A DNA stretch of 31,427 nt from a virus. Its lineage: Duplodnaviria > Heunggongvirae > Uroviricota > Caudoviricetes. Of this stretch, positions 8,870 to 19,923 are shown one piece after another. The notes beneath the pieces were generated by a model, which saw only the letters and a list, made by a program, of their open reading frames with translations, ran no database searches and had not been told where the DNA came from. Both the position numbers and the translations under genes were made by a program. The stretch is taken from the IMG/VR virus record IMGVR_UViG_3300005805_000054, positions 1-31,427 of that record; one strand, 5' to 3'. Position 1 is the stretch's first letter; every line of letters begins with the position of its first letter.

Positions 8870-9530
8870 TCGGCTTCTTTTTACACTTATCACCATGTTC
8901 TCTACCAAACGTAGGTTTTCCTACTTCTTTTTTACAAAATACACAAGAAACTTTTATATTATGCGGGCTATTCGCACCCTTCAAATTATGAGTCCCATTT
9001 TTTGATCGTTCTATTGCCCTTTTTCTTGCGGCTTCTTTGTCTAAAAAATGATGAGTTCCTTTAGCTAATAATCTGTTAGCAGTTTCTCTTTGTATGCTTC
9101 CGCCAGTAAACGCATTTTTACCTTCTTTGGTTTGTTTGTACACTGGATTATTTTCACCAATAAAATGATGGGTACCATCAACTATTCTTTTTAAATTTTT
9201 TTCTCTTGCTAAGTCACTATTCTGCCAGTTATGTGTACCTTGCTCTGATCTTGCTAATGCACTTTTTCTGGCCAAATTAGAAAATTCTTCACCTGTCATG
9301 AATAATCTTTTTTGAGCAACCATAAGACCGCATGCTCCAAAGTCACCCCGTGAATAATGGATATCATAGTGTTCTTTAATGGTTACCGCCTTTAAATTCA
9401 ACGGATCATTATTACTATGATTACCGTCAATATGGTGAATTTCGTAACTACGGCCTTCGTCATCTTTAGGGATTGGACCATAATATTGTTCATAAATCTT
9501 ACGATGGTTGGGTTTATTATAAATAGTCAT
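8862..9530 (-). CDS. Free-standing HNH homing endonuclease with C-terminal CCHC finger
   Basis: YEIHHIDGNHSNNDPLNL...EHYDIH HNH motif; CVFC-x12-H-x3-C tail. Confidence 0.85.
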   Translation of the reverse strand: MTIYNKPNHRKIYEQYYGPIPKDDEGRSYEIHHIDGNHSNNDPLNLKAVTIKEHYDIHYSRGDFGACGLMVAQKRLFMTGEEFSNLARKSALARSEQGTHNWQNSDLAREKNLKRIVDGTHHFIGENNPVYKQTKEGKNAFTGGSIQRETANRLLAKGTHHFLDKEAARKRAIERSKNGTHNLKGANSPHNIKVSCVFCKKEVGKPTFGREHGDKCKKKPTR

Positions 9531-10848: not shown

Positions 10849-10915
10849 TGCTGATGCTCCTATACAGTGTTAGAGTGAGTGGGGATTGCAGTCCCGCGAC
10901 TCACACTTATTTATC
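10849..10915 (-). promoter_or_regulatory. GATAAATA motif plus conserved stem-loop leader, copy 3
   Basis: Reverse complement reads gataaata-agt-GTGAGT-cgc-GGGA-ctgcaa-TCCC-c-ACTCAC-tct-aacactgtataggagcatcagca-ATG. Confidence 0.8.
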
Positions 10916-10934
10916 AAATTTTACTAAATACTAT

Positions 10935-12452
10935 ATGAGTAAACAAATTGTAATTATTCCGGGGGGCTTCCATCCCTACCACGCAGGCCATTATGCTTTA
11001 TATCAGTCAGCCCGCAAAGCATTCCCTGATGCTGATTTATATGTTGCGGCAACAAACAGTCAAGAGACACGACCTTTTCCTTTTGCAGTAAAAGAAAAAC
11101 TAGCAAAAGTTGCTGGCGTTGCTCCTGGTCATTTTGTTCAAGTTAAGAGTCCTTTCCAAGCTAAAGAGATTACACAAAACTATGATCCAGAACAAGATAT
11201 ATTGATTTTTGTTCGTAGTGAGAAGGATCGCAATGAAAGTCCTAAGCCAGGTGGCATGAAGAAAGATGGTACACCTGCTTACTTCCAACCATATACTGGT
11301 AAAGACATGCAACCTTTTGCTAAACATGCATACTTTGCTTATCTACCAACAGTTGAGTTTGGTCCTGGTATTACAAGTGCGACAGAGATTCGCAATGCAT
11401 GGCCTAAGTTAGATGACCGTCGCAAGACAGCAATGGTTATGAGTTTGTATCCAGCGACACAAAAGAATCCTAAACTTGCCGCTAATGTTGTTAAGATGTT
11501 AGATATTGGTATGGGTGGACAAGAAAATGTGGCGAAGGACAATTTGGCAGAAGAACAAGTTACCGAATTGGATGTTAGCAAAACATTGAAATTTGCCACT
11601 AAGGCGCACAAAGGACAACAATACGGGGAGAAGCCATATATTACTCATCCAAGATCAGTTGCTGCCACAGGTAAGAAATTTTTTGGCGCAGCATTTACAC
11701 CAGATGCTATTAAAGTGGCATTACTACATGATGTCGTAGAAGATACTCCTTATAAGTTAAATCAGTTATCCAAGATGGGGTACACTCCGGAAGTTGTAGA
11801 AGCTGTACAATTGTTAACGAAGAATAAAGCATTGAGTTATGCAGACAACATCAAGGCAATTATTGCTAGTGATAATAAACTAGCAATGATGGTCAAGTAT
11901 GCCGACAACTATCAAAACTTTACAGGTGATAAGTCGTCTTGGGATCCTGAAAGAGTAGCACATAGTCAAAAGAAATATCTAGCAAGTTTAGATATGCTAG
12001 GAGACAAGTTAGGTATTAAACAACATCTAAGCCAACCTAAACAGCAAGGTGTGGCGGAAGGCAAACAAATTTGGGACGGTACAGATTGGGGACCACAAGG
12101 TAACTTTGCAGGTGACACTCCAGTTAATCTCGGTGGGCAACCAGTTAATAAACTTCAAGTCGGTGACATTGTAACTTACTTTGGACAAAAAGCAAGAATA
12201 GAGGCTATGTCTAAAACTGGTAATACTTCTCGCATCACTATTGCAAACAAAATGGGCGGCATTACCCAAGATGTACTCACACGTGATTTAAAACGTACAG
12301 GTATGTCAGAAGAAATTGGCAGAGCAGGTGGTGGTTTTGGCACAAACTATCCAGGCACTTACGAAGAAGAAAACGGCCCGTTTACCCATAAGGGCGGATT
12401 AAAACTTACATCTCTTACTACAGAGAGCGTAGATTACTTAGACGAAAAATAA
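10935..12452 (+). CDS. Multi-module protein: HIGH-type cytidylyltransferase-like domain, RelA/SpoT-type HD hydrolase domain and small C-terminal modules
   Basis: PGGFHPYHAGH; AHKGQQYGEKPYITHP..VA...ALLHDVVEDT...KYADN; QGVAEG repeat at 12045. Likely start 10935 after CTAAATA. Confidence 0.8.
   Translation: MSKQIVIIPGGFHPYHAGHYALYQSARKAFPDADLYVAATNSQETRPFPFAVKEKLAKVAGVAPGHFVQVKSPFQAKEITQNYDPEQDILIFVRSEKDRNESPKPGGMKKDGTPAYFQPYTGKDMQPFAKHAYFAYLPTVEFGPGITSATEIRNAWPKLDDRRKTAMVMSLYPATQKNPKLAANVVKMLDIGMGGQENVAKDNLAEEQVTELDVSKTLKFATKAHKGQQYGEKPYITHPRSVAATGKKFFGAAFTPDAIKVALLHDVVEDTPYKLNQLSKMGYTPEVVEAVQLLTKNKALSYADNIKAIIASDNKLAMMVKYADNYQNFTGDKSSWDPERVAHSQKKYLASLDMLGDKLGIKQHLSQPKQQGVAEGKQIWDGTDWGPQGNFAGDTPVNLGGQPVNKLQVGDIVTYFGQKARIEAMSKTGNTSRITIANKMGGITQDVLTRDLKRTGMSEEIGRAGGGFGTNYPGTYEEENGPFTHKGGLKLTSLTTESVDYLDEK
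12045..12062 (+). repeat. Outlying copy of the QGVAEG repeat
   Basis: CAAGGTGTGGCGGAAGGC, identical to the array consensus. Confidence 0.9.
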
Positions 12453-13588: not shown

Positions 13589-14560
13589 ATGAACTTAAAA
13601 GAGCTTTATTCTTTCAAAATATCCGACGCCGTCACTTTCCATGACAAGCTAAATCCTGCATTGTGGGCAGGTACTAAATTGCGTCCTGAAGTTAAAAATC
13701 AACTAGAAGAAATAGCAAAAGACTTCTTGGAAGAAATGGGAATTCACGACTTAGATGTAAGAGATATTACTATATCCGGGTCTAATGCCGCATACAGTTA
13801 TACAAAACACAGTGACTTAGATTTACATCTCTTAGTCAATATCGCAGATTTACCCAACAATGAAATTTACCGTGAATTCTTTGACGCCAAGAAGTCATTA
13901 TATAACGATTCACATGATATAACTATTCACGGAGTTCCTGTAGAATTATATGTACAAGATGCCGCACAACCATCTGTTACATTAGGTGAGTATAGTTTGA
14001 AAGATGATAAGTGGTTACGAGTTCCTACAAAGCGCAGAGCTAACTTTGACCAATCAGCTACAAGATTGAAGTATGAAAAATTACTTGACATTGTAGAAAG
14101 AGCATTAGATTCAAAGAACTTAACCAAAATTCAAAAAGTATTAAAGAAGATTAAGCAATATCGTCAAGCTGGATTAGATAAAGGTGGCGAGTTTGGTCCT
14201 GAGAATCTAGCATTCAAAGCATTGCGTAGTCGGGGATATATTACTAAACTATATGATTTGCGTGATAAGTTACATAGTGAACATTTAACTATTGAAACTA
14301 TGTATCAAGATCCTGCTAAGATAATTGAAGATAATTTAGTAGATGATTTAGCAAATGAGTTTAGCCAATACCAAACAACCAGTGTAGGTGAATCTAGTGG
14401 CTATATTCCTAGCAATGCACAGAAAAATGACCCACGTTTTAAGACAGCATTGACAGTGGATGTTCACCCGGACAGTATCAAAAAGAACGCAAAAGCGTTT
14501 AGCTGGCTCATTAGTAGAGCCGGAATCCCACCAATAGCAAAGCCCTCAGGCAAAATCTGA
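13589..14560 (+). CDS. Pol-beta-superfamily nucleotidyltransferase with an appended C-terminal module
   Basis: ISGSNAAYSYTKHSDLDLH (GS...DxD) and VELYVQD. Confidence 0.8.
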   Translation: MNLKELYSFKISDAVTFHDKLNPALWAGTKLRPEVKNQLEEIAKDFLEEMGIHDLDVRDITISGSNAAYSYTKHSDLDLHLLVNIADLPNNEIYREFFDAKKSLYNDSHDITIHGVPVELYVQDAAQPSVTLGEYSLKDDKWLRVPTKRRANFDQSATRLKYEKLLDIVERALDSKNLTKIQKVLKKIKQYRQAGLDKGGEFGPENLAFKALRSRGYITKLYDLRDKLHSEHLTIETMYQDPAKIIEDNLVDDLANEFSQYQTTSVGESSGYIPSNAQKNDPRFKTALTVDVHPDSIKKNAKAFSWLISRAGIPPIAKPSGKI

Positions 14561-14604
14561 TAATGTAGTATTTTGATAAATACTAGATAACTTTGGAATT
14601 CGCT

Positions 14605-15567
14605 ATGAAAATTAATCAAATCGTACAAGAAACTACTACTTCAGGGTCAGTTGCCCCAGTAGAACATGGTTTCGTCAAAATGCAGTCTCGCAGTCCTAGT
14701 GTTTATGGAAACACAAAAGCAGGATCATTATTCAAGGGTAAGAAAACTAATAAGCCATACGGTAACAGTCTCAACGAAGGTGCAATGAAGCAACTATCAA
14801 TGGACTTAAAAGGTGGTGCAGATGGACTATCCGATCAAGAATTTCAAAAGAAATACAAGATGAGTAAGCAAGCTGCCCGTCAAGAGTTAGCTTCCAACAG
14901 AAAACAATCTAAACCAGAACCAGTACAAGAGGCTAGATTAGAAGAAGATGATATAATTCAAATGCCCGGTAGAGGTTCTAAACGCAAAACTGGATTTGTA
15001 CCAAAAGGTCAAAGTCGGGTAGACCATGAAGTTGAAATGGCTCGTAGTGATGTATTGGCAACAATGAAAAACGCAAAAGCAATTTATCAATTACTACAAA
15101 ACCGCGGTGAAGATGAGGGTCTTGAAGGATGGGTACAAGAAAAATTAATCAAAGCAAATGACTATCTAAATGCTGTCAAAGAATACTATGACGAAAAAAT
15201 GATGGAACAGGGCGCCGGTGTTATTGCTGCAGGCGGCGTAGGTGAAGGTAGAGCCACATACGGCCCAGTCACCGATGCACACAAAGCCTCTTCAAAGAAA
15301 GTGTTTTCAGCTGGGGTAAAAGATGGCAAAGCTGGTGCAGAGAAAAACAAACAACACATGGCCAATGCATTGATGAAAACAACTTATCTCAATGGGTACA
15401 AACAGGGTGAGAAAAGTGTGGCGGAAGGAGCTAAAGTAGATAGAATGGTTAAGCACATTGCCAAATCAGAACGTAAGCTAGGCAAAAGCAAAGACGAAGC
15501 CGAAAACATCGCCTGGGCAACTGCTAACAAGCGTGGCATGTTAGACAACAAGAACAAGAAAGCGTGA
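14605..15567 (+). CDS. Modular hypothetical protein (hydrophobic-x-E delimited segments), possibly virion-internal
   Basis: Starts MKINQIVQE; segments end in LNE, VQE, MME, VGE and SVAE; repeat variant AGTGTGGCGGAAGGA at 15415-15429. Confidence 0.7.
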   Translation: MKINQIVQETTTSGSVAPVEHGFVKMQSRSPSVYGNTKAGSLFKGKKTNKPYGNSLNEGAMKQLSMDLKGGADGLSDQEFQKKYKMSKQAARQELASNRKQSKPEPVQEARLEEDDIIQMPGRGSKRKTGFVPKGQSRVDHEVEMARSDVLATMKNAKAIYQLLQNRGEDEGLEGWVQEKLIKANDYLNAVKEYYDEKMMEQGAGVIAAGGVGEGRATYGPVTDAHKASSKKVFSAGVKDGKAGAEKNKQHMANALMKTTYLNGYKQGEKSVAEGAKVDRMVKHIAKSERKLGKSKDEAENIAWATANKRGMLDNKNKKA

Positions 15568-15568
15568 T

Positions 15569-18500
15569 ATGAGCAATATTCTAAAAGGTTTACAACTAAA
15601 CGAATTATCTAATAAGAAGTTAGGTGACTATAAAACAGCCGCAGGTGCTGATGCTACTGCCGCTGACAAGGCAGGTGACTATAAGCGCGGTGATAAGCGT
15701 ATGAGCGGTATCATCAAAGCAACTAAAAAAGAATTTGCTAATGATGAGAAGAAAAAAGATGTGACAGAGAGTGTTGCAGAAACTTTACCAATGGATGATG
15801 CTATGAAAGTATTGCGTCAATATGGGGCAGATCACTTCAAAACAACCAGCAACGAATTGCATTTTTATAAAAACGGCAGACCACTAAGTGTTGACCTAAT
15901 TTGGGGCAACGAGGGCGAAAGAAGTGTGAATTTGAGCCAGTTAAATTCAGCTACTCGTCAACTAAAAGGGCAAGGTGTGGCGGAAGCAGGCATGCCATTT
16001 CGTGGAGTAGGTGGAGCATTTAACCGCGGTGATGACGAGCGTCACGATCTAGATCCATCTGAGTGGTACATTGTTAAAGATGGTAAGATGTACAAAACAT
16101 CTGTATACCCTAATCAAGTACAACAAGCAATAGCACAAGGTTATAGTCGTAGTAGAGAAGAAGCTAAAGCTAAAGCAGATCGTCAAGGTGTAGCGGAAGG
16201 CTCTGACAATCAAGAAATTGGCCAACAAATGGCCAATGATGGAGTCACTTATAGCCCAGCAAAAGAAAATGAAATTATTAACTTAATGGCTCAATATATG
16301 CAAAAGGCAGGTATGAGTTCAAAACAAATTCGTTATCTATTGAGCTACGATGAGGATTATGTTGGCGATCAATTAAGTTTCTTGCCTAGGCAAAAGGTGA
16401 CAGAGGATCAACTAGATGAATTGAAATGCTGGTCAGGGTATCATAGAGTTGCCGGTACAAAAGCAGGCTTTCCGGGTAGTTGTGCAAAAAATAAAACAAA
16501 TGAAGAAGGTGTGGCGGAAGGCTCCGAAGAAGATATGAGTAAAGAAGTCAAGGCAATGGCCACAGGTACCTGCCCACATTGCCATGGTCCTGTAAAGAAA
16601 AAAGAACACCCAACGCTAACACAATATCATTGTGCTAAATGCGGTATACGGGGAAGTATTGACAAGCAAGGTGTGGCGGAAGGCTCCAGTGATACTGTCT
16701 ATCCCAACGCAGAAGTAATCAAGTCAAAAAATGGCAAGCCAGTAGGCGAAATTTATCAAGACGGTAATAGTTGGGGTGCTTTTCACTATCGTGCAGACCG
16801 TGGATATGATTTAATCGACAGTAGAGAAGATGCCATAGAAGCACTCCGAGACCTACATCAAGAAACAGGTCGTAGTCGTCCAGACTATACTATCAAAGGT
16901 GTGGCGGAAGCAACAGGCGATGAAAAATTTGATAAAATGATTAAGGGTATCACCGGTAAAAAAGCAGTAGCTAAACAACAAAAAATAGATACAAAGCAAC
17001 AGGCACGTGATGCGTTTGGTGGTATGTTTGGTGGAGGTAATCCTGCTGATAAACTTGGCATTAGAAAGAAAGGTGTGGCGGAAATGGACAAATCACAAAC
17101 TCCTCCAGGCCGTGATGGCAGCAACGATCCCGACGCCGGCAAAAAAGAATACACTGCAAAAGTAACTACACCTGAAAAAATAGCCAAACATGGCAAAGAG
17201 ATTCTAAACAAAGTGTTAAACAAAAAGCAAGGTGTGGCGGAGGCTACAGGCGATGCAAAATTTGATACTATGATGGGCAATATAGCAAAACCGTCAGCCG
17301 TAAAAGCACTCGGTAGAGAAGAAAAGGTTTATGAACTAATAAGGAAATACTTCTGGCACAAGCGCAGAGCAGACCTGGGTTCAGCAGTAACAAGTGAACA
17401 CGGACATGATCGCATGGTACAGAAAGTATTGATGGCCCTAAAGAAAATGAATGTAGATTTATCTACCATGGACCCATCAAAACTAAAAGCGATCAAAGGC
17501 GAAGTATACGAGCAAGGTGTAGCGGAAGGCTCCAAAGAAGATATGAGTAAAGAAGTCAAGGCAATGGCCACAGGCACTTGCCCACATTGCCATGGTCCTG
17601 TAAAGAAAAAAGAACACCCAACGCTGACACAATATCACTGCCCTAAATGCGGTATAAGAGCAAGTCAAGACAAGCAAGGTGTGGCGGAAGGCTCCACCTT
17701 TCCCGGTCCACTTAGTGGTCGTGAATGGTCAAAAGTTGGTAGACAAATAAAGTCATCTCAGGGTCGTGATAGCAGTGTTACAAGTCCACATCAACGAAAA
17801 GATTGGTACAATCCAAAAGATCCAAGAAGTAGCAAACAGCAAAAATTGGACTATTTAAAATCTATGAAGGCAAAACAAGGTGTGGCGGAAGAACAACATA
17901 GTTGCCCACATTGCGGCGGCGAGATGGTTAGTGAAGAACTAATGAACGAAAAGAAAGATGCTTGCTACTATAAAGTTAAGAGCCGTTATAAAGTATGGCC
18001 AAGTGCTTATGCCAGTGGTGCATTAGTTAAGTGCCGTAAGAGTGGAGCAGATAGTTGGGGCGATGGCGGCAAGAAGAATGAAAGTTCTATACTAGAAGGC
18101 ATTGAACAAGTAGACGAGAACTTACACAAGTGGTTCAAAGAGAAGTGGGTTCGTTTTGGTCCTGATGGTAAGATTCGCGGCGACTGTGCTAGAGGTGATG
18201 ACAGTGAAGGTAAACCAAAGTGTTTGCCACAAAGTAAAGCACAGAACTTAGGTAAAGAAGGTCGTGCAAGTGCAGCCGCAAGAAAGCGTAGAGAAGATCC
18301 TAATCCAGAACGTAGTGGTAAGGCTATCAATGTTAACACTAAAAAGAAATCTAACGAAGGTGTGGCGGAAGGCTTGGATAAACCCAGAGAAGCAGGTAAA
18401 GCAATACAGAGTTTGAAAAATCTTGCAATTATGAAGTCTGCTCTTACGATGCAACAGTTATCTCAGGCAGGAAGAGAATCTATTGTTACCAATGCAATCA

Positions 18501-18814
18501 ATGCAGCCAAAACACTAGAACAGTCTTACATGGCAAACAAGCAACAAGGTAATGCCATATTTGTAAGAGCATTAAGGGACGAAATTGATAATTTCAGAAG
18601 AGGTGCTCCAATCAATGCATCTTTCCCTGAATCTGACAATGCGTCCGAGTTGGGTGATTTATTGCAAGGAAAATTAAGTAAGATTAATTTTCAGCAAGAT
18701 ATGGCGGAAGCACAGTTAGACGAAAAGTGGTCAACAAAATACAAAGACAGTATCAACTGTAGTAATCCTAAAGGCTTTAGTCAAAAAGCACATTGTCAAG
18801 GAAAAAACAAATGA
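15569..18814 (+). CDS. 1081-aa GVAE-repeat modular polyprotein-like protein
   Basis: 11 GVAE plus 1 DMAE junctions separating unrelated modules, including Zn-ribbon and Cys-containing modules. Confidence 0.85.
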   Translation: MSNILKGLQLNELSNKKLGDYKTAAGADATAADKAGDYKRGDKRMSGIIKATKKEFANDEKKKDVTESVAETLPMDDAMKVLRQYGADHFKTTSNELHFYKNGRPLSVDLIWGNEGERSVNLSQLNSATRQLKGQGVAEAGMPFRGVGGAFNRGDDERHDLDPSEWYIVKDGKMYKTSVYPNQVQQAIAQGYSRSREEAKAKADRQGVAEGSDNQEIGQQMANDGVTYSPAKENEIINLMAQYMQKAGMSSKQIRYLLSYDEDYVGDQLSFLPRQKVTEDQLDELKCWSGYHRVAGTKAGFPGSCAKNKTNEEGVAEGSEEDMSKEVKAMATGTCPHCHGPVKKKEHPTLTQYHCAKCGIRGSIDKQGVAEGSSDTVYPNAEVIKSKNGKPVGEIYQDGNSWGAFHYRADRGYDLIDSREDAIEALRDLHQETGRSRPDYTIKGVAEATGDEKFDKMIKGITGKKAVAKQQKIDTKQQARDAFGGMFGGGNPADKLGIRKKGVAEMDKSQTPPGRDGSNDPDAGKKEYTAKVTTPEKIAKHGKEILNKVLNKKQGVAEATGDAKFDTMMGNIAKPSAVKALGREEKVYELIRKYFWHKRRADLGSAVTSEHGHDRMVQKVLMALKKMNVDLSTMDPSKLKAIKGEVYEQGVAEGSKEDMSKEVKAMATGTCPHCHGPVKKKEHPTLTQYHCPKCGIRASQDKQGVAEGSTFPGPLSGREWSKVGRQIKSSQGRDSSVTSPHQRKDWYNPKDPRSSKQQKLDYLKSMKAKQGVAEEQHSCPHCGGEMVSEELMNEKKDACYYKVKSRYKVWPSAYASGALVKCRKSGADSWGDGGKKNESSILEGIEQVDENLHKWFKEKWVRFGPDGKIRGDCARGDDSEGKPKCLPQSKAQNLGKEGRASAAARKRREDPNPERSGKAINVNTKKKSNEGVAEGLDKPREAGKAIQSLKNLAIMKSALTMQQLSQAGRESIVTNAINAAKTLEQSYMANKQQGNAIFVRALRDEIDNFRRGAPINASFPESDNASELGDLLQGKLSKINFQQDMAEAQLDEKWSTKYKDSINCSNPKGFSQKAHCQGKNK
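15971..18712 (+). repeat. Interspersed in-frame 18-bp direct repeat array (consensus CAAGGTGTGGCGGAAGGC)
   Basis: Copies begin at 15971, 16184, 16505, 16667, 16895, 17069, 17228, 17513, 17675, 17876, 18356 and 18695; unit lengths 213, 321, 162, 228, 174, 159, 285, 162, 201, 480 and 339 bp. Confidence 0.92.
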
Positions 18815-18857
18815 CAGATTTTGAATTTTATTGGAATAGAAAAGGATACCCTAGATA

Positions 18858-19298
18858 ATGTTATCAGATAACTTAAAAGTATTATTAGCAAGCACACAAG
18901 CGTTTGCTATTAAAACACAAAACTTTCATTGGTGTGTAGAGGGAAGTAACTTCCCGCAGTATCACGAATTCTTTGACACACTATATGGCGATGTAAGTGC
19001 AACTATCGATCCTATTGCTGAATATATCAGAATACTTGGATCTTATACGCCTGGCAGTTTATCACGCTATGCTGAATTAAGTATTATTCAAGATCAAATA
19101 AAGATTCCCCGTGCTGAGTTAATGTTTCAAGAATCTCTACAAGACTGTGAAACAATGATCCAATTAGTTGTTGCTATGTTTGAAGAAGCGGCAAACGAAA
19201 AGCAACACGGTATCGAAAACTATATGGCTGAACTACAAGACTTGTATGGTAAGAAAGCCTGGTTCATTCGTTCTACACTAAAGAGAGAGCGTGAGTAA
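18858..19298 (+). CDS. dps: Dps/ferritin-like protein
   Basis: KTQNFHWCVEGSNFPQYHEFFDTLY...DPIAEYIRILG...KAWFIRS. Confidence 0.85.
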   Translation: MLSDNLKVLLASTQAFAIKTQNFHWCVEGSNFPQYHEFFDTLYGDVSATIDPIAEYIRILGSYTPGSLSRYAELSIIQDQIKIPRAELMFQESLQDCETMIQLVVAMFEEAANEKQHGIENYMAELQDLYGKKAWFIRSTLKRERE

Positions 19299-19489
19299 TG
19301 AAAGCGAAGGAAGTATATAAGGGTTTCAAAACTTATTCTGCTAAGATATTAGTAAAGAACCCTAATTATTCCGTTCATATGGATGCCATCGTAAACGCTA
19401 AAGATATAACGCAAGCAAGATACCTTATCAAACTACAATACAATGTAGACGATGGCAGAATAGGTACAATCAAAGAAATCAAACAATGA
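19298..19489 (+). CDS. Hypothetical protein, 63 aa
   Basis: ORF track; overlaps neighbours at start and stop. Confidence 0.65.
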   Translation: MKAKEVYKGFKTYSAKILVKNPNYSVHMDAIVNAKDITQARYLIKLQYNVDDGRIGTIKEIKQ

Positions 19490-19923
19490 AAAAAATATTA
19501 ATAACAATATTACTAGCAATTTCCACAGTAGCAATAGCACAAAAAACACCAAAAGGTGTCACATATGATGCAAATATAGTGCGTGTAAGTGATGGAGATA
19601 CAATTGTAATTGCGGCTCCGTTTCTGCCACAGCCATTAAAGCCAGAGTTAGCTGTTCGTATATACGGGGTAGATACTCCTGAAAAAGGATTTAGAGCAAA
19701 ATGCCCAGCCGAAGAGGCTAAAGGACAAGCCGCAAGCAAGTTTACTAAAGATGCAGTAGCAGCCGCACAAAAGCGTCAAGTAACACTGTATGCTTGGGAC
19801 AAGTTTGGTGGCAGAGTTTTAGGTGATATATTATTGAATGGACAAAGCCTTCGTGCTATGTTGATTCAAAATGGATTTGCAAGAGAATACTACGGAGAAG
19901 CTAAAACTTCTTGGTGTAACTAA
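19486..19923 (+). CDS. Thermonuclease/SNase-family nuclease with signal peptide
   Basis: RVSDGDT, VRIYGVDTPE, DKFGGRVLG; N-terminal MKKILITILLAISTVAIA. Confidence 0.85.
   Translation: MKKILITILLAISTVAIAQKTPKGVTYDANIVRVSDGDTIVIAAPFLPQPLKPELAVRIYGVDTPEKGFRAKCPAEEAKGQAASKFTKDAVAAAQKRQVTLYAWDKFGGRVLGDILLNGQSLRAMLIQNGFAREYYGEAKTSWCN

Follow-up and report, generated by a model that had tools for sequence, protein, structure and literature searches.

P0001, a shuffled cassette array in a T4-related lake phage, may be a polyprotein form of the T4 internal-protein system

The internal proteins (IPs) of phage T4 are textbook injected anti-restriction cargo, encoded by single genes in a few coliphages. 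The T4 capsid-targeting sequence (CTS), MKTYQEFIAE, comprises 10 residues, of which residues 8 and 10 are decisive for processing. The T4 protease gp21 cleaves after Glu in L/I-x-E (PMC9026906). The polyvalent proteins of phages combine many unrelated domains in one polypeptide and show extensive mosaicism; packaging, delivery on invasion and processing into separate units have been proposed for them (Iyer et al., 2017; PMC5512222). In T4-type phages, whole genes are shuffled by PeSL cassettes, which are intergenic promoter-terminator units with a conserved DNA repeat at the cassette borders where exchange occurs (Arbiol et al., 2010; PMC2839356). Here we analyze a 31,427-nucleotide (nt) stretch of viral DNA (hereafter the window) and within it a gene, P0001 (positions 15569-18814, + strand), whose product of 1081 amino acids (aa), a single frame by translation, consists of a leader followed by ~14 modules of 34-160 aa. 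P0001 is a shuffled cassette array, of which we have almost no doubt: its modules are joined mostly by the peptide GVAE, and the DNA encoding this peptide acts as an in-frame joint for their exchange. By analogy, we read P0001 as a polyprotein form of the T4 internal-protein system in a T4-related jumbo phage of lakes, one whose probable role is to furnish a changeable assortment of proteins that travel within the virus head.

Like the T4 IPs, P0001 begins with a short leader (~10 residues) ending in hydrophobic-x-Glu; its predicted products are IP-like in size (5-18 kDa) and many are basic; relatives carry diverse cargo behind a conserved leader; and the lineage has a gp21-type protease (Peptidase_S77), found on related contigs. 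T4 IPs, however, are single-module proteins that are cut once, whereas P0001 holds up to ~14 modules with a site ahead of each, and internally it uses a single stereotyped site peptide whose nucleotide sequence is fixed too and which is also a recombination joint. P0001 has no sequence similarity to the T4 IPs, no match of its modules in Pfam or PHROGs was named internal protein (IPI, IPII, IPIII), and its cleavage and packaging are predicted. With the polyvalent proteins it shares the string of many unrelated units, the mosaicism and the proposal of packaging, delivery and processing, and ParB_N, GNAT and methyltransferase domains occur sporadically in its family. Unlike them, it has no embedded peptidase (MPTase type), its modules are mostly tiny and unannotated, and the punctuating junction motif with its DNA-level conservation lies outside the published description. 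Like the PeSLs, the P0001 repeat is conserved DNA marking the borders at which cassettes are exchanged, but it is coding and in frame and shuffles modules within genes; being coding, in frame and devoid of dyad symmetry, it is no attC site of an integron either, although an integrase was not looked for systematically. Polyproteins from RNA viruses of eukaryotes are likewise single translation products in which a short junction peptide recurs between unrelated units, but here the host of the arrangement is a DNA phage, the protease would be expected to act in trans inside the capsid, and the junction is also a recombination joint. A literature search on GVAE with phage, capsid targeting, polyprotein and jumbo phages found no publication describing such an arrangement.

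Eleven exact GVAE copies punctuate P0001, starting at residues 136, 207, 314, 368, 444, 502, 555, 650, 704, 771 and 931. Since only ~0.03 would be expected in a protein of this size (an estimate from typical residue frequencies), a chance origin is excluded. On the + strand, junctions 1-11 lie at 15974-15985 (GGTGTGGCGGAA), 16187-16198 (GTA variant), 16508-16519, 16670-16681, 16898-16909, 17072-17083, 17231-17242 (GAG variant), 17516-17527 (GTA variant), 17678-17689, 17879-17890 and 18359-18370. The 19-nt DNA repeat family has a twelfth copy (18694-18712), which reads as the degenerate Q-D-M-A-E, whose DMAE (residues 1044-1047; 18698-18709, + strand) precedes a conserved 34-aa Cys/Trp tail module, and a thirteenth, related site is SVAE at residues 68-71 (15770-15781, + strand). 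An initial annotation had counted 12 GVAE-type junctions in this reading frame; we find 11 exact copies plus the degenerate DMAE and SVAE. The repeats are spaced 213, 321, 162, 228, 174, 159, 285, 162, 201, 480 and 339 nt apart, each distance divisible by 3, which bears out the earlier description of a spacing of 159-480 that is always in frame. The pieces range in pI from 4.8 to 10.2, and the entire chain is basic (pI 9.1). The modules had been called unrelated, but not all of them are: two Zn-ribbons are near-duplicates, and modules 7 and 9 have their first 10 residues in common. The units of 53-160 aa proposed earlier did not prove to be the true ones. Several are compound, the GVAE spacing being coarser than the real units; two sub-modules, for example, make up module 12. 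As had also been noted, the junction recurs in two other reading frames, as QQGVAEG at 12048 in a cytidylyltransferase-like + HD gene (10854-12452) and as K-SVAE-G at 15415 in the adjacent gene P0123 (14605-15567).

In a comparison of contigs from other lake samples with positions 15000-19400, near-identical modules were found in other orders, in frame, with the crossover within the repeat. Two lake contigs pass from junction 3 to junction 10 (16505 -> 17877), skipping 1371 nt with 15 shared letters; another crosses from junction 4 to junction 6 (16669 -> 17072), skipping 402 nt; and in a third case (15769 -> 15986) the 216 nt from the degenerate SVAE onward (15770-15985), exactly module 2, are lost, all in frame. 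In lake contigs, module 2 itself is preceded by one of three junctions, which end at 17530, 17692 and 18373. The contigs were built with 31-letter words, and the shared repeat core is shorter; assembly chimeras at the repeat are therefore unlikely. A complete junction-module-junction unit has also been duplicated within P0001: the Zn-ribbon cassettes at 16506-16688 and 17514-17696 (+ strand; repeat family D2) are 92% identical, both flanking junctions included.

Exchange extends to other genes and other phages. A second polyprotein, P0121 (837 aa; G000:41752-44265, L133:1253-3766, - strand), lies outside the window on the same contig and has five GVAE and two AVAE sites; its C-terminal 397-aa domain matches Pfam GP88 (E 1.7e-23), and among its modules is a relative of module 6 in P0001. 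P0121 and an open reading frame of locus L093 have in common a leader module of 47-48 aa (87.5%) and a C-terminal domain of ~400 aa (84%). Between these, P0121 carries six segments (~390 aa) where L093 carries one unrelated 68-aa Zn-ribbon module, and the DNA homology breaks off and restarts at the repeat. Among 190 family proteins, 19% of the ends of high-identity similarity fell within 5 aa of GVAE, against 4.8% of random positions. At least 1823 proteins were retrieved with one query, chains of 594-1760 aa that typically have one or two modules in common at 75-98% identity, and module 12 occurred in 3679 representatives of 50%-identity clusters (547 with E <1e-30), anywhere within proteins of 201-1270 aa. 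The proposal that module order and content vary, with breakpoints at the repeat, is thus borne out by the P0121/L093 comparison, the lake-contig joints and the similarity ends. The commonest junction (~15-17 nt) acts as an in-frame recombination joint; through it modules become duplicated, are deleted or change places, be it inside one gene, from gene to gene or from phage to phage, and the cargo set is consequently highly variable across the population. Separately, contigs X4 and X5, from two lake samples, end the gene after module 12 (18334-18855) through 23 other letters with a stop, followed by the next gene; the helical module and the Cys/Trp tail are thereby lost.

The joint is conserved as DNA, a point absent from the initial annotation. 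Its core is GGTGTGGCGGAA and its consensus peptide K-K-Q-G-V-A-E-G-S. Among the [G/S]VAE copies of the phage's own genome, Ala is encoded by GCG in 18/19 and Val by GTG in 16/19, where these codons make up 8% of Ala and 14% of Val codons in the genome background; the residue ahead of GVAE is Q, E or K, yet the last two bases of its codon stay AA. When IMG/VR was scanned with a 16-mer of the repeat, at least 120 loci were found, and more than 115 contigs besides our own carry the repeat in frame. Among the matches listed, 171 of 175 copies of the 16-mer were read as GVAE in the longest open frame, and 69 open frames had two to seven copies. To control for ascertainment, one index copy per locus was removed, which left 141 copies on 65 contigs. 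The identical 12-mer was present in 69% of these, GCG in 86% (7% background) and GTG in 87% (20% background). Codon bias is no explanation for such figures: the junction is fixed at the nucleotide level far beyond it, and this makes it a recombination joint. We prefer short-homology recombination in mixed infections as the cause, since cassettes with consensus flanks fit in frame into any junction of any array, so that the consensus is continually copied, much as PeSLs mediate shuffling but within a coding frame (PMC2839356); a dedicated nuclease or a role at the RNA level might also lie behind it.

Other explanations of the motif were set aside. Nothing in the sequence resembles 2A-like ribosome skipping or a self-cleaving motif, a consistent start codon that would suit an internal Shine-Dalgarno role for AAGGTG is absent downstream, and the repeat equals no Chi-like site of which we are aware.

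We favor, with moderate confidence, the view that a prohead protease cuts P0001 and that the head carries it. The leader, MSNILKGLQLNE (15569-15604, + strand; 12 aa), ends in L-N-E and resembles the T4 CTS; as in T4, it would bring the chain into the prohead core. There a T4 gp21-type prohead protease would cut after Glu at each hydrophobic-x-Glu junction, mostly V-A-E|G but also I-L-E|G, M-A-E|A and L-N-E|L, and would free ~14 small proteins of 4-18 kDa that would remain with the DNA and then enter the host alongside it. That the product is packaged as a single chain, cut in the head and ejected had been suggested before. The cassette array on which this suggestion was built stands; cleavage at V-A-E|G, packaging and ejection we infer from the motif, the leaders, the Peptidase_S77 of relatives and a homologue in cyanophage S-SM1. 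Anti-defence or DNA-associated roles of the modules are a guess made by analogy with T4 IPI, and the host-takeover role raised earlier is conjecture.

The junction behaves as a peptide signal where its DNA is not kept. When 39 module 12 copies taken from varied contexts were aligned, the site after the module's end was seen to read GVAE, SVAE, DVAE, GMAE, SVVE, DVTE, SISE, SIEE or NIGE, so that hydrophobic-x-Glu is retained while the DNA has changed. The I-L-E|G within module 12 (residues 841-844) aligns with A-V-L-E|G of the cyanophage homologue, and relatives show GVAE|G or SVAE|N at that place. Recurrent similarity boundaries lay within 4 aa of hydrophobic-x-Glu in 50% of cases, against 18% of random positions, and the value was 47% when GVAE-proximal boundaries were left out. 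The P1' residue was Gly, Ala or Ser in 177/214 junction copies. A Glu-Ala bond is the first cut observed for T4 gp21, and giant-phage prohead proteases cut at S/A-x-E or A-x-E (PMC9026906; PMC5694885).

Leaders point in the same direction. Of 120 family proteins, 114 reach the end of their first hydrophobic-x-E at residue 8-12, and the leaders of the 120 include the MSNILKGL type, to which that of P0001 belongs (91), MNLFDIFE (9) and MKPAEFLNE (9). The same feature was found in 79 of 115 proteins chosen by module 12 alone, a set unbiased for the N-terminus, compared with 21% of random 12-residue windows. In the phage's own genome the leaders are MSNILKGLQLNE in P0001, MKINQIVQE in P0123 and MKIRHLME in P0121. 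The module LSN-x-KL-x-x-YK-x-AA-x-DA, which occupies residues 10-70 of P0001 (15596-15780, + strand), occurs at 69 places among the 120 proteins and always has Q-L-(N/D)-E ahead of it; two hydrophobic-x-Glu sites are therefore often 2-3 residues apart. This module comes after varied leaders at N-termini and after GVAE|G, SVAE|S, I-P-E|S and other sites inside chains. In the related contigs G001 and G005, modules of P0001 are separate small genes (101-371 aa), which upholds the earlier view of the modules as independent units. Three of four such genes have their own leader of 8-9 residues with hydrophobic-x-Glu directly ahead of the module; the leader of the fourth has 22 residues. These stand-alone genes place single-module, T4-IP-like genes and the polyprotein on one continuum.

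P0001 could instead be an uncleaved, beads-on-a-string multidomain protein, loosely polyvalent, which acts whole in the cell or in the virion and in which GVAEG is an innocuous flexible linker left by, or kept for, in-frame recombination. Recombination is the sole function actually demonstrated for the repeat, the nucleotide conservation exceeds the needs of a peptide signal, GVAE also ties a module to the leaderless enzyme gene at 10854-12452, and phage polyvalent proteins of 2-15 domains are known (PMC5512222). A neutral linker, however, needs no invariant Glu followed by a small residue, and such a linker does not account for the hydrophobic-x-Glu retained where the junction DNA differs, for its enrichment at boundaries that lack GVAE, or for the short leaders with the same end motif directly ahead of stand-alone modules. 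We regard an uncleaved chain as unlikely, and as the best of the alternatives. If P0001 is cleaved in the head as we favor, the junction could have a dual purpose and be selected twice, its peptide as the cut site inside the head and its 15-17 nt of fixed DNA as a dedicated in-frame joint that may work by plain short-homology recombination or by recognition by a phage nuclease; this idea we advance tentatively.

Of all the modules of P0001, the one found most widely is module 12 (residues 775-934; 17891-18370, + strand), a Cys/Trp basic unit of the DUF5872 type. Its two sub-modules, linked by the I-L-E|G at 18089-18097, occur apart in other proteins. Pfam DUF5872 matched residues 708-934, which contain module 12, at 28.0 bits (cut-off 27.5; E 3.7e-6), scored under the cut-off on the entire protein (24.6 bits), and was matched in 14/43 family members scanned. 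Apart from DUF5872, sub-threshold Zn-ribbons were the only domain matches of P0001, and searches of single modules against Pfam and PHROGs returned only families of unknown function and sub-threshold Zn-ribbon, Lar and DUF2188 matches. Among the 43 members, ParB_N was found in two, GNAT, methyltransferase, LysM and sigma-70 region 4 in one each, and TonB_C and GP88 also occurred; no peptidase domain was present in these proteins, in P0001 or in P0121. AlphaFold2 (AF2) modeling of entire P0001 without an alignment gave a mean confidence (pLDDT) of 43.5 and a pTM of 0.27, values that neither show nor exclude a single fold; only the two Zn ribbons (~70 for copy 1) and the helical module reached 60-77. 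Module 12, modeled with an alignment of 39 sequences, had a pLDDT of 49, too poor for a fold search, and its look-up in the ESM Atlas returned viral hypothetical clusters only (scores <=0.84).

The window covers the initial 31.4 kb of G000, an IMG/VR virus contig of 95.4 kb with a CheckV completeness of 28%, which corresponds to a genome of ~340 kb. Near-identical DNA is present in lake-water and freshwater metagenomes, and none was found among cultured phages. The family-B DNA polymerase (PolB) of the contig is closest, at 43-49% identity, to those of Sinorhizobium phage Phosso, Agrobacterium phage Atu_ph07, Vibrio phage 2.275.O and RaK2-like phages, which form the jumbo branch of T4-related phages. 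In two large array-bearing relatives, G002 (300 kb) and G004, a Peptidase_S77 gene stands beside gp22-like scaffold and gp23 genes. G002 has a PolB 63% identical to that of the window, with GVAE genes ~4 kb upstream of it as in the window; the G002 protease is nearest to those of Phosso, PA5oct, SCTP-2, 2.275.O and RaK2-like phages, the same jumbo T4-related group as the PolB neighbors. The scaffold protein of G004 itself contains L-V-A-E-G and F-V-A-E-S. Array genes adjoin DNA-binding-protein and PolB genes in the window and likewise in G001 and G005 (PolB 63% identical). Protease and capsid searches of G001, G003 and G005 were empty; as the capsid gene is missing alongside the protease, we take these contigs to be incomplete and the absence not to be a true one. 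G001 (IMG/VR, 342,865 nt, reached through locus L061) is 99% complete by CheckV, yet a search with Pfam models and the G002 proteins as queries gave zero capsid or prohead-protease matches. The CheckV estimate is probably too high for this lineage, in which cultured relatives reach 470-490 kb.

When cultured phages were searched with P0001, module 12 alone was matched, nearly always in cyanophages. These relatives are T4-like cyanophage proteins of cluster T4-GC119, such as SSM1_115 of S-SM1 (L140:1137-2624) and Syn19_101 (L134:1306-2469). SSM1_115 carries the two sub-modules of module 12 in reverse order (53% and 40% identity), and the T4-GC119 proteins have further small Cys/Trp basic units joined by the hydrophobic-x-Glu sites V-V-A-E|K, A-V-L-E|G and V-T-N-E|G. 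Unlike P0001, they have few modules and lack the stereotyped GVAE repeat, the nucleotide-conserved junction and an MSNILKGL-type leader, and their genes adjoin gp16 in the structural region. T4-GC119 is listed as a structural protein in purified S-SM1 virions, with 13 peptide counts (Sullivan et al., 2010; PMC3037559 Suppl. Table 8). By experiment, only this detection ties the system to the capsid, and what was detected is a homologue rather than P0001 itself. T4-GC119 proteins can be described as chains of like small Cys/Trp basic units with joints V-T-N-E|G/A, L-N-E|G and A-V-L-E|G, and their genes also adjoin that of the abundant virion protein T4-GC403. GC119 was described by Sullivan et al. 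within a mobile cassette with petE, PTOX and an endonuclease (PMC3037559).

Several observations weigh against cleavage and packaging. No protease, capsid or portal gene was found on the phage's own 95-kb contig at its 28% completeness. The neighbors of P0001 are replication genes, and for the T4 late-promoter consensus TATAAATA the window has one match (at 9518) where 3.3 are expected; late transcription may thus be signalled differently in this lineage than in T4. GVAE is also present in the cytidylyltransferase + HD gene, on which no CTS-like leader was found. V-A-E, proposed earlier to suit the hydrophobic-x-E specificity of T4-type proteases, agrees in pattern with the L/I-x-E rule, but its Val at P3 is not among the L/I published for T4 gp21. 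The structure predictions (pLDDT 43.5 for P0001, 49 for module 12) are uninformative. Finally, nucleotide conservation by itself would equally fit a purely DNA-level role.

Some of these observations would suit a true polyprotein that is cut in the cytoplasm by another phage or host protease, in the style of RNA viruses, and whose products act unpackaged during infection: the gene lies among early/replication-type genes, the T4 late-promoter signal is not enriched, and the enzyme gene uses the junction too. T4 internal-protein genes, however, likewise lie outside the head gene cluster. We consider cytoplasmic processing improbable: the arrays have no linked candidate for a site-specific protease, both the length and the end motif of the leaders follow the capsid-targeting pattern of T4, and S-SM1 virions contain a homologous protein with modules of this kind. 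Equally improbable is a repeat that is primarily a nucleic-acid signal (a nuclease or recombinase target, or an RNA processing or pausing site) and only incidentally translated: more than 65 contigs retain the specific rare codons GTG-GCG, the codon ahead keeps its final AA while Q, E and K alternate, and an endonuclease-family gene lies ~700 nt downstream (19486-19923), but 19/19 copies in the phage's own genome are in one reading frame on the coding strand, with none intergenic, as are 171/175 of the matches listed elsewhere, variant junctions preserve the peptide pattern and not the DNA, Rfam gave zero matches over 14500-19500, and direct inspection revealed no dyad symmetry; the in-frame position of every copy and the peptide kept at variant junctions together argue against a purely nucleic-acid function.

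Read as head-packaged cargo, P0001 shows the logic of the T4 internal proteins in polyprotein form, with up to ~14 units and a built-in, nucleotide-conserved joint that visibly reshuffles them in natural lake populations. If cleavage and delivery are true, jumbo phages would have a general way to diversify injected proteins, and the arrays would offer a rich source of small proteins for defence-system screens as well as a natural design for loading T4-type capsids with multiple proteins. If the dual purpose of the junction is also true, thousands of lake phages could share a common pool of cargo modules, a protein-level counterpart of the integron for injected proteins.

Two further genes of the window carry the junction. 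In the cytidylyltransferase-like + HD gene (10854-12452, + strand), the perfect QQGVAEG, with GVAE at 12048-12059 (+ strand), is followed by a C-terminal module of ~130 aa that is common with polyproteins: its end (..ITQDVLTRDLKRTGMSE) reappears inside the family protein P0030. A putative cytidylyltransferase, T4-GC190, has been detected in S-SM1 virions (PMC3037559). P0123 (14605-15567, + strand; 320 aa), the family member adjacent upstream of P0001, has one module in common with the family protein P0062 and ends in a 46-aa tail module. Its K-SVAE|G junction at 15415-15426 is one DNA mismatch from the core, and its stop lies one base ahead of the ATG of P0001. In one lake contig, the last ~107 codons of P0123 (15247-15568) are swapped for 25 other letters.

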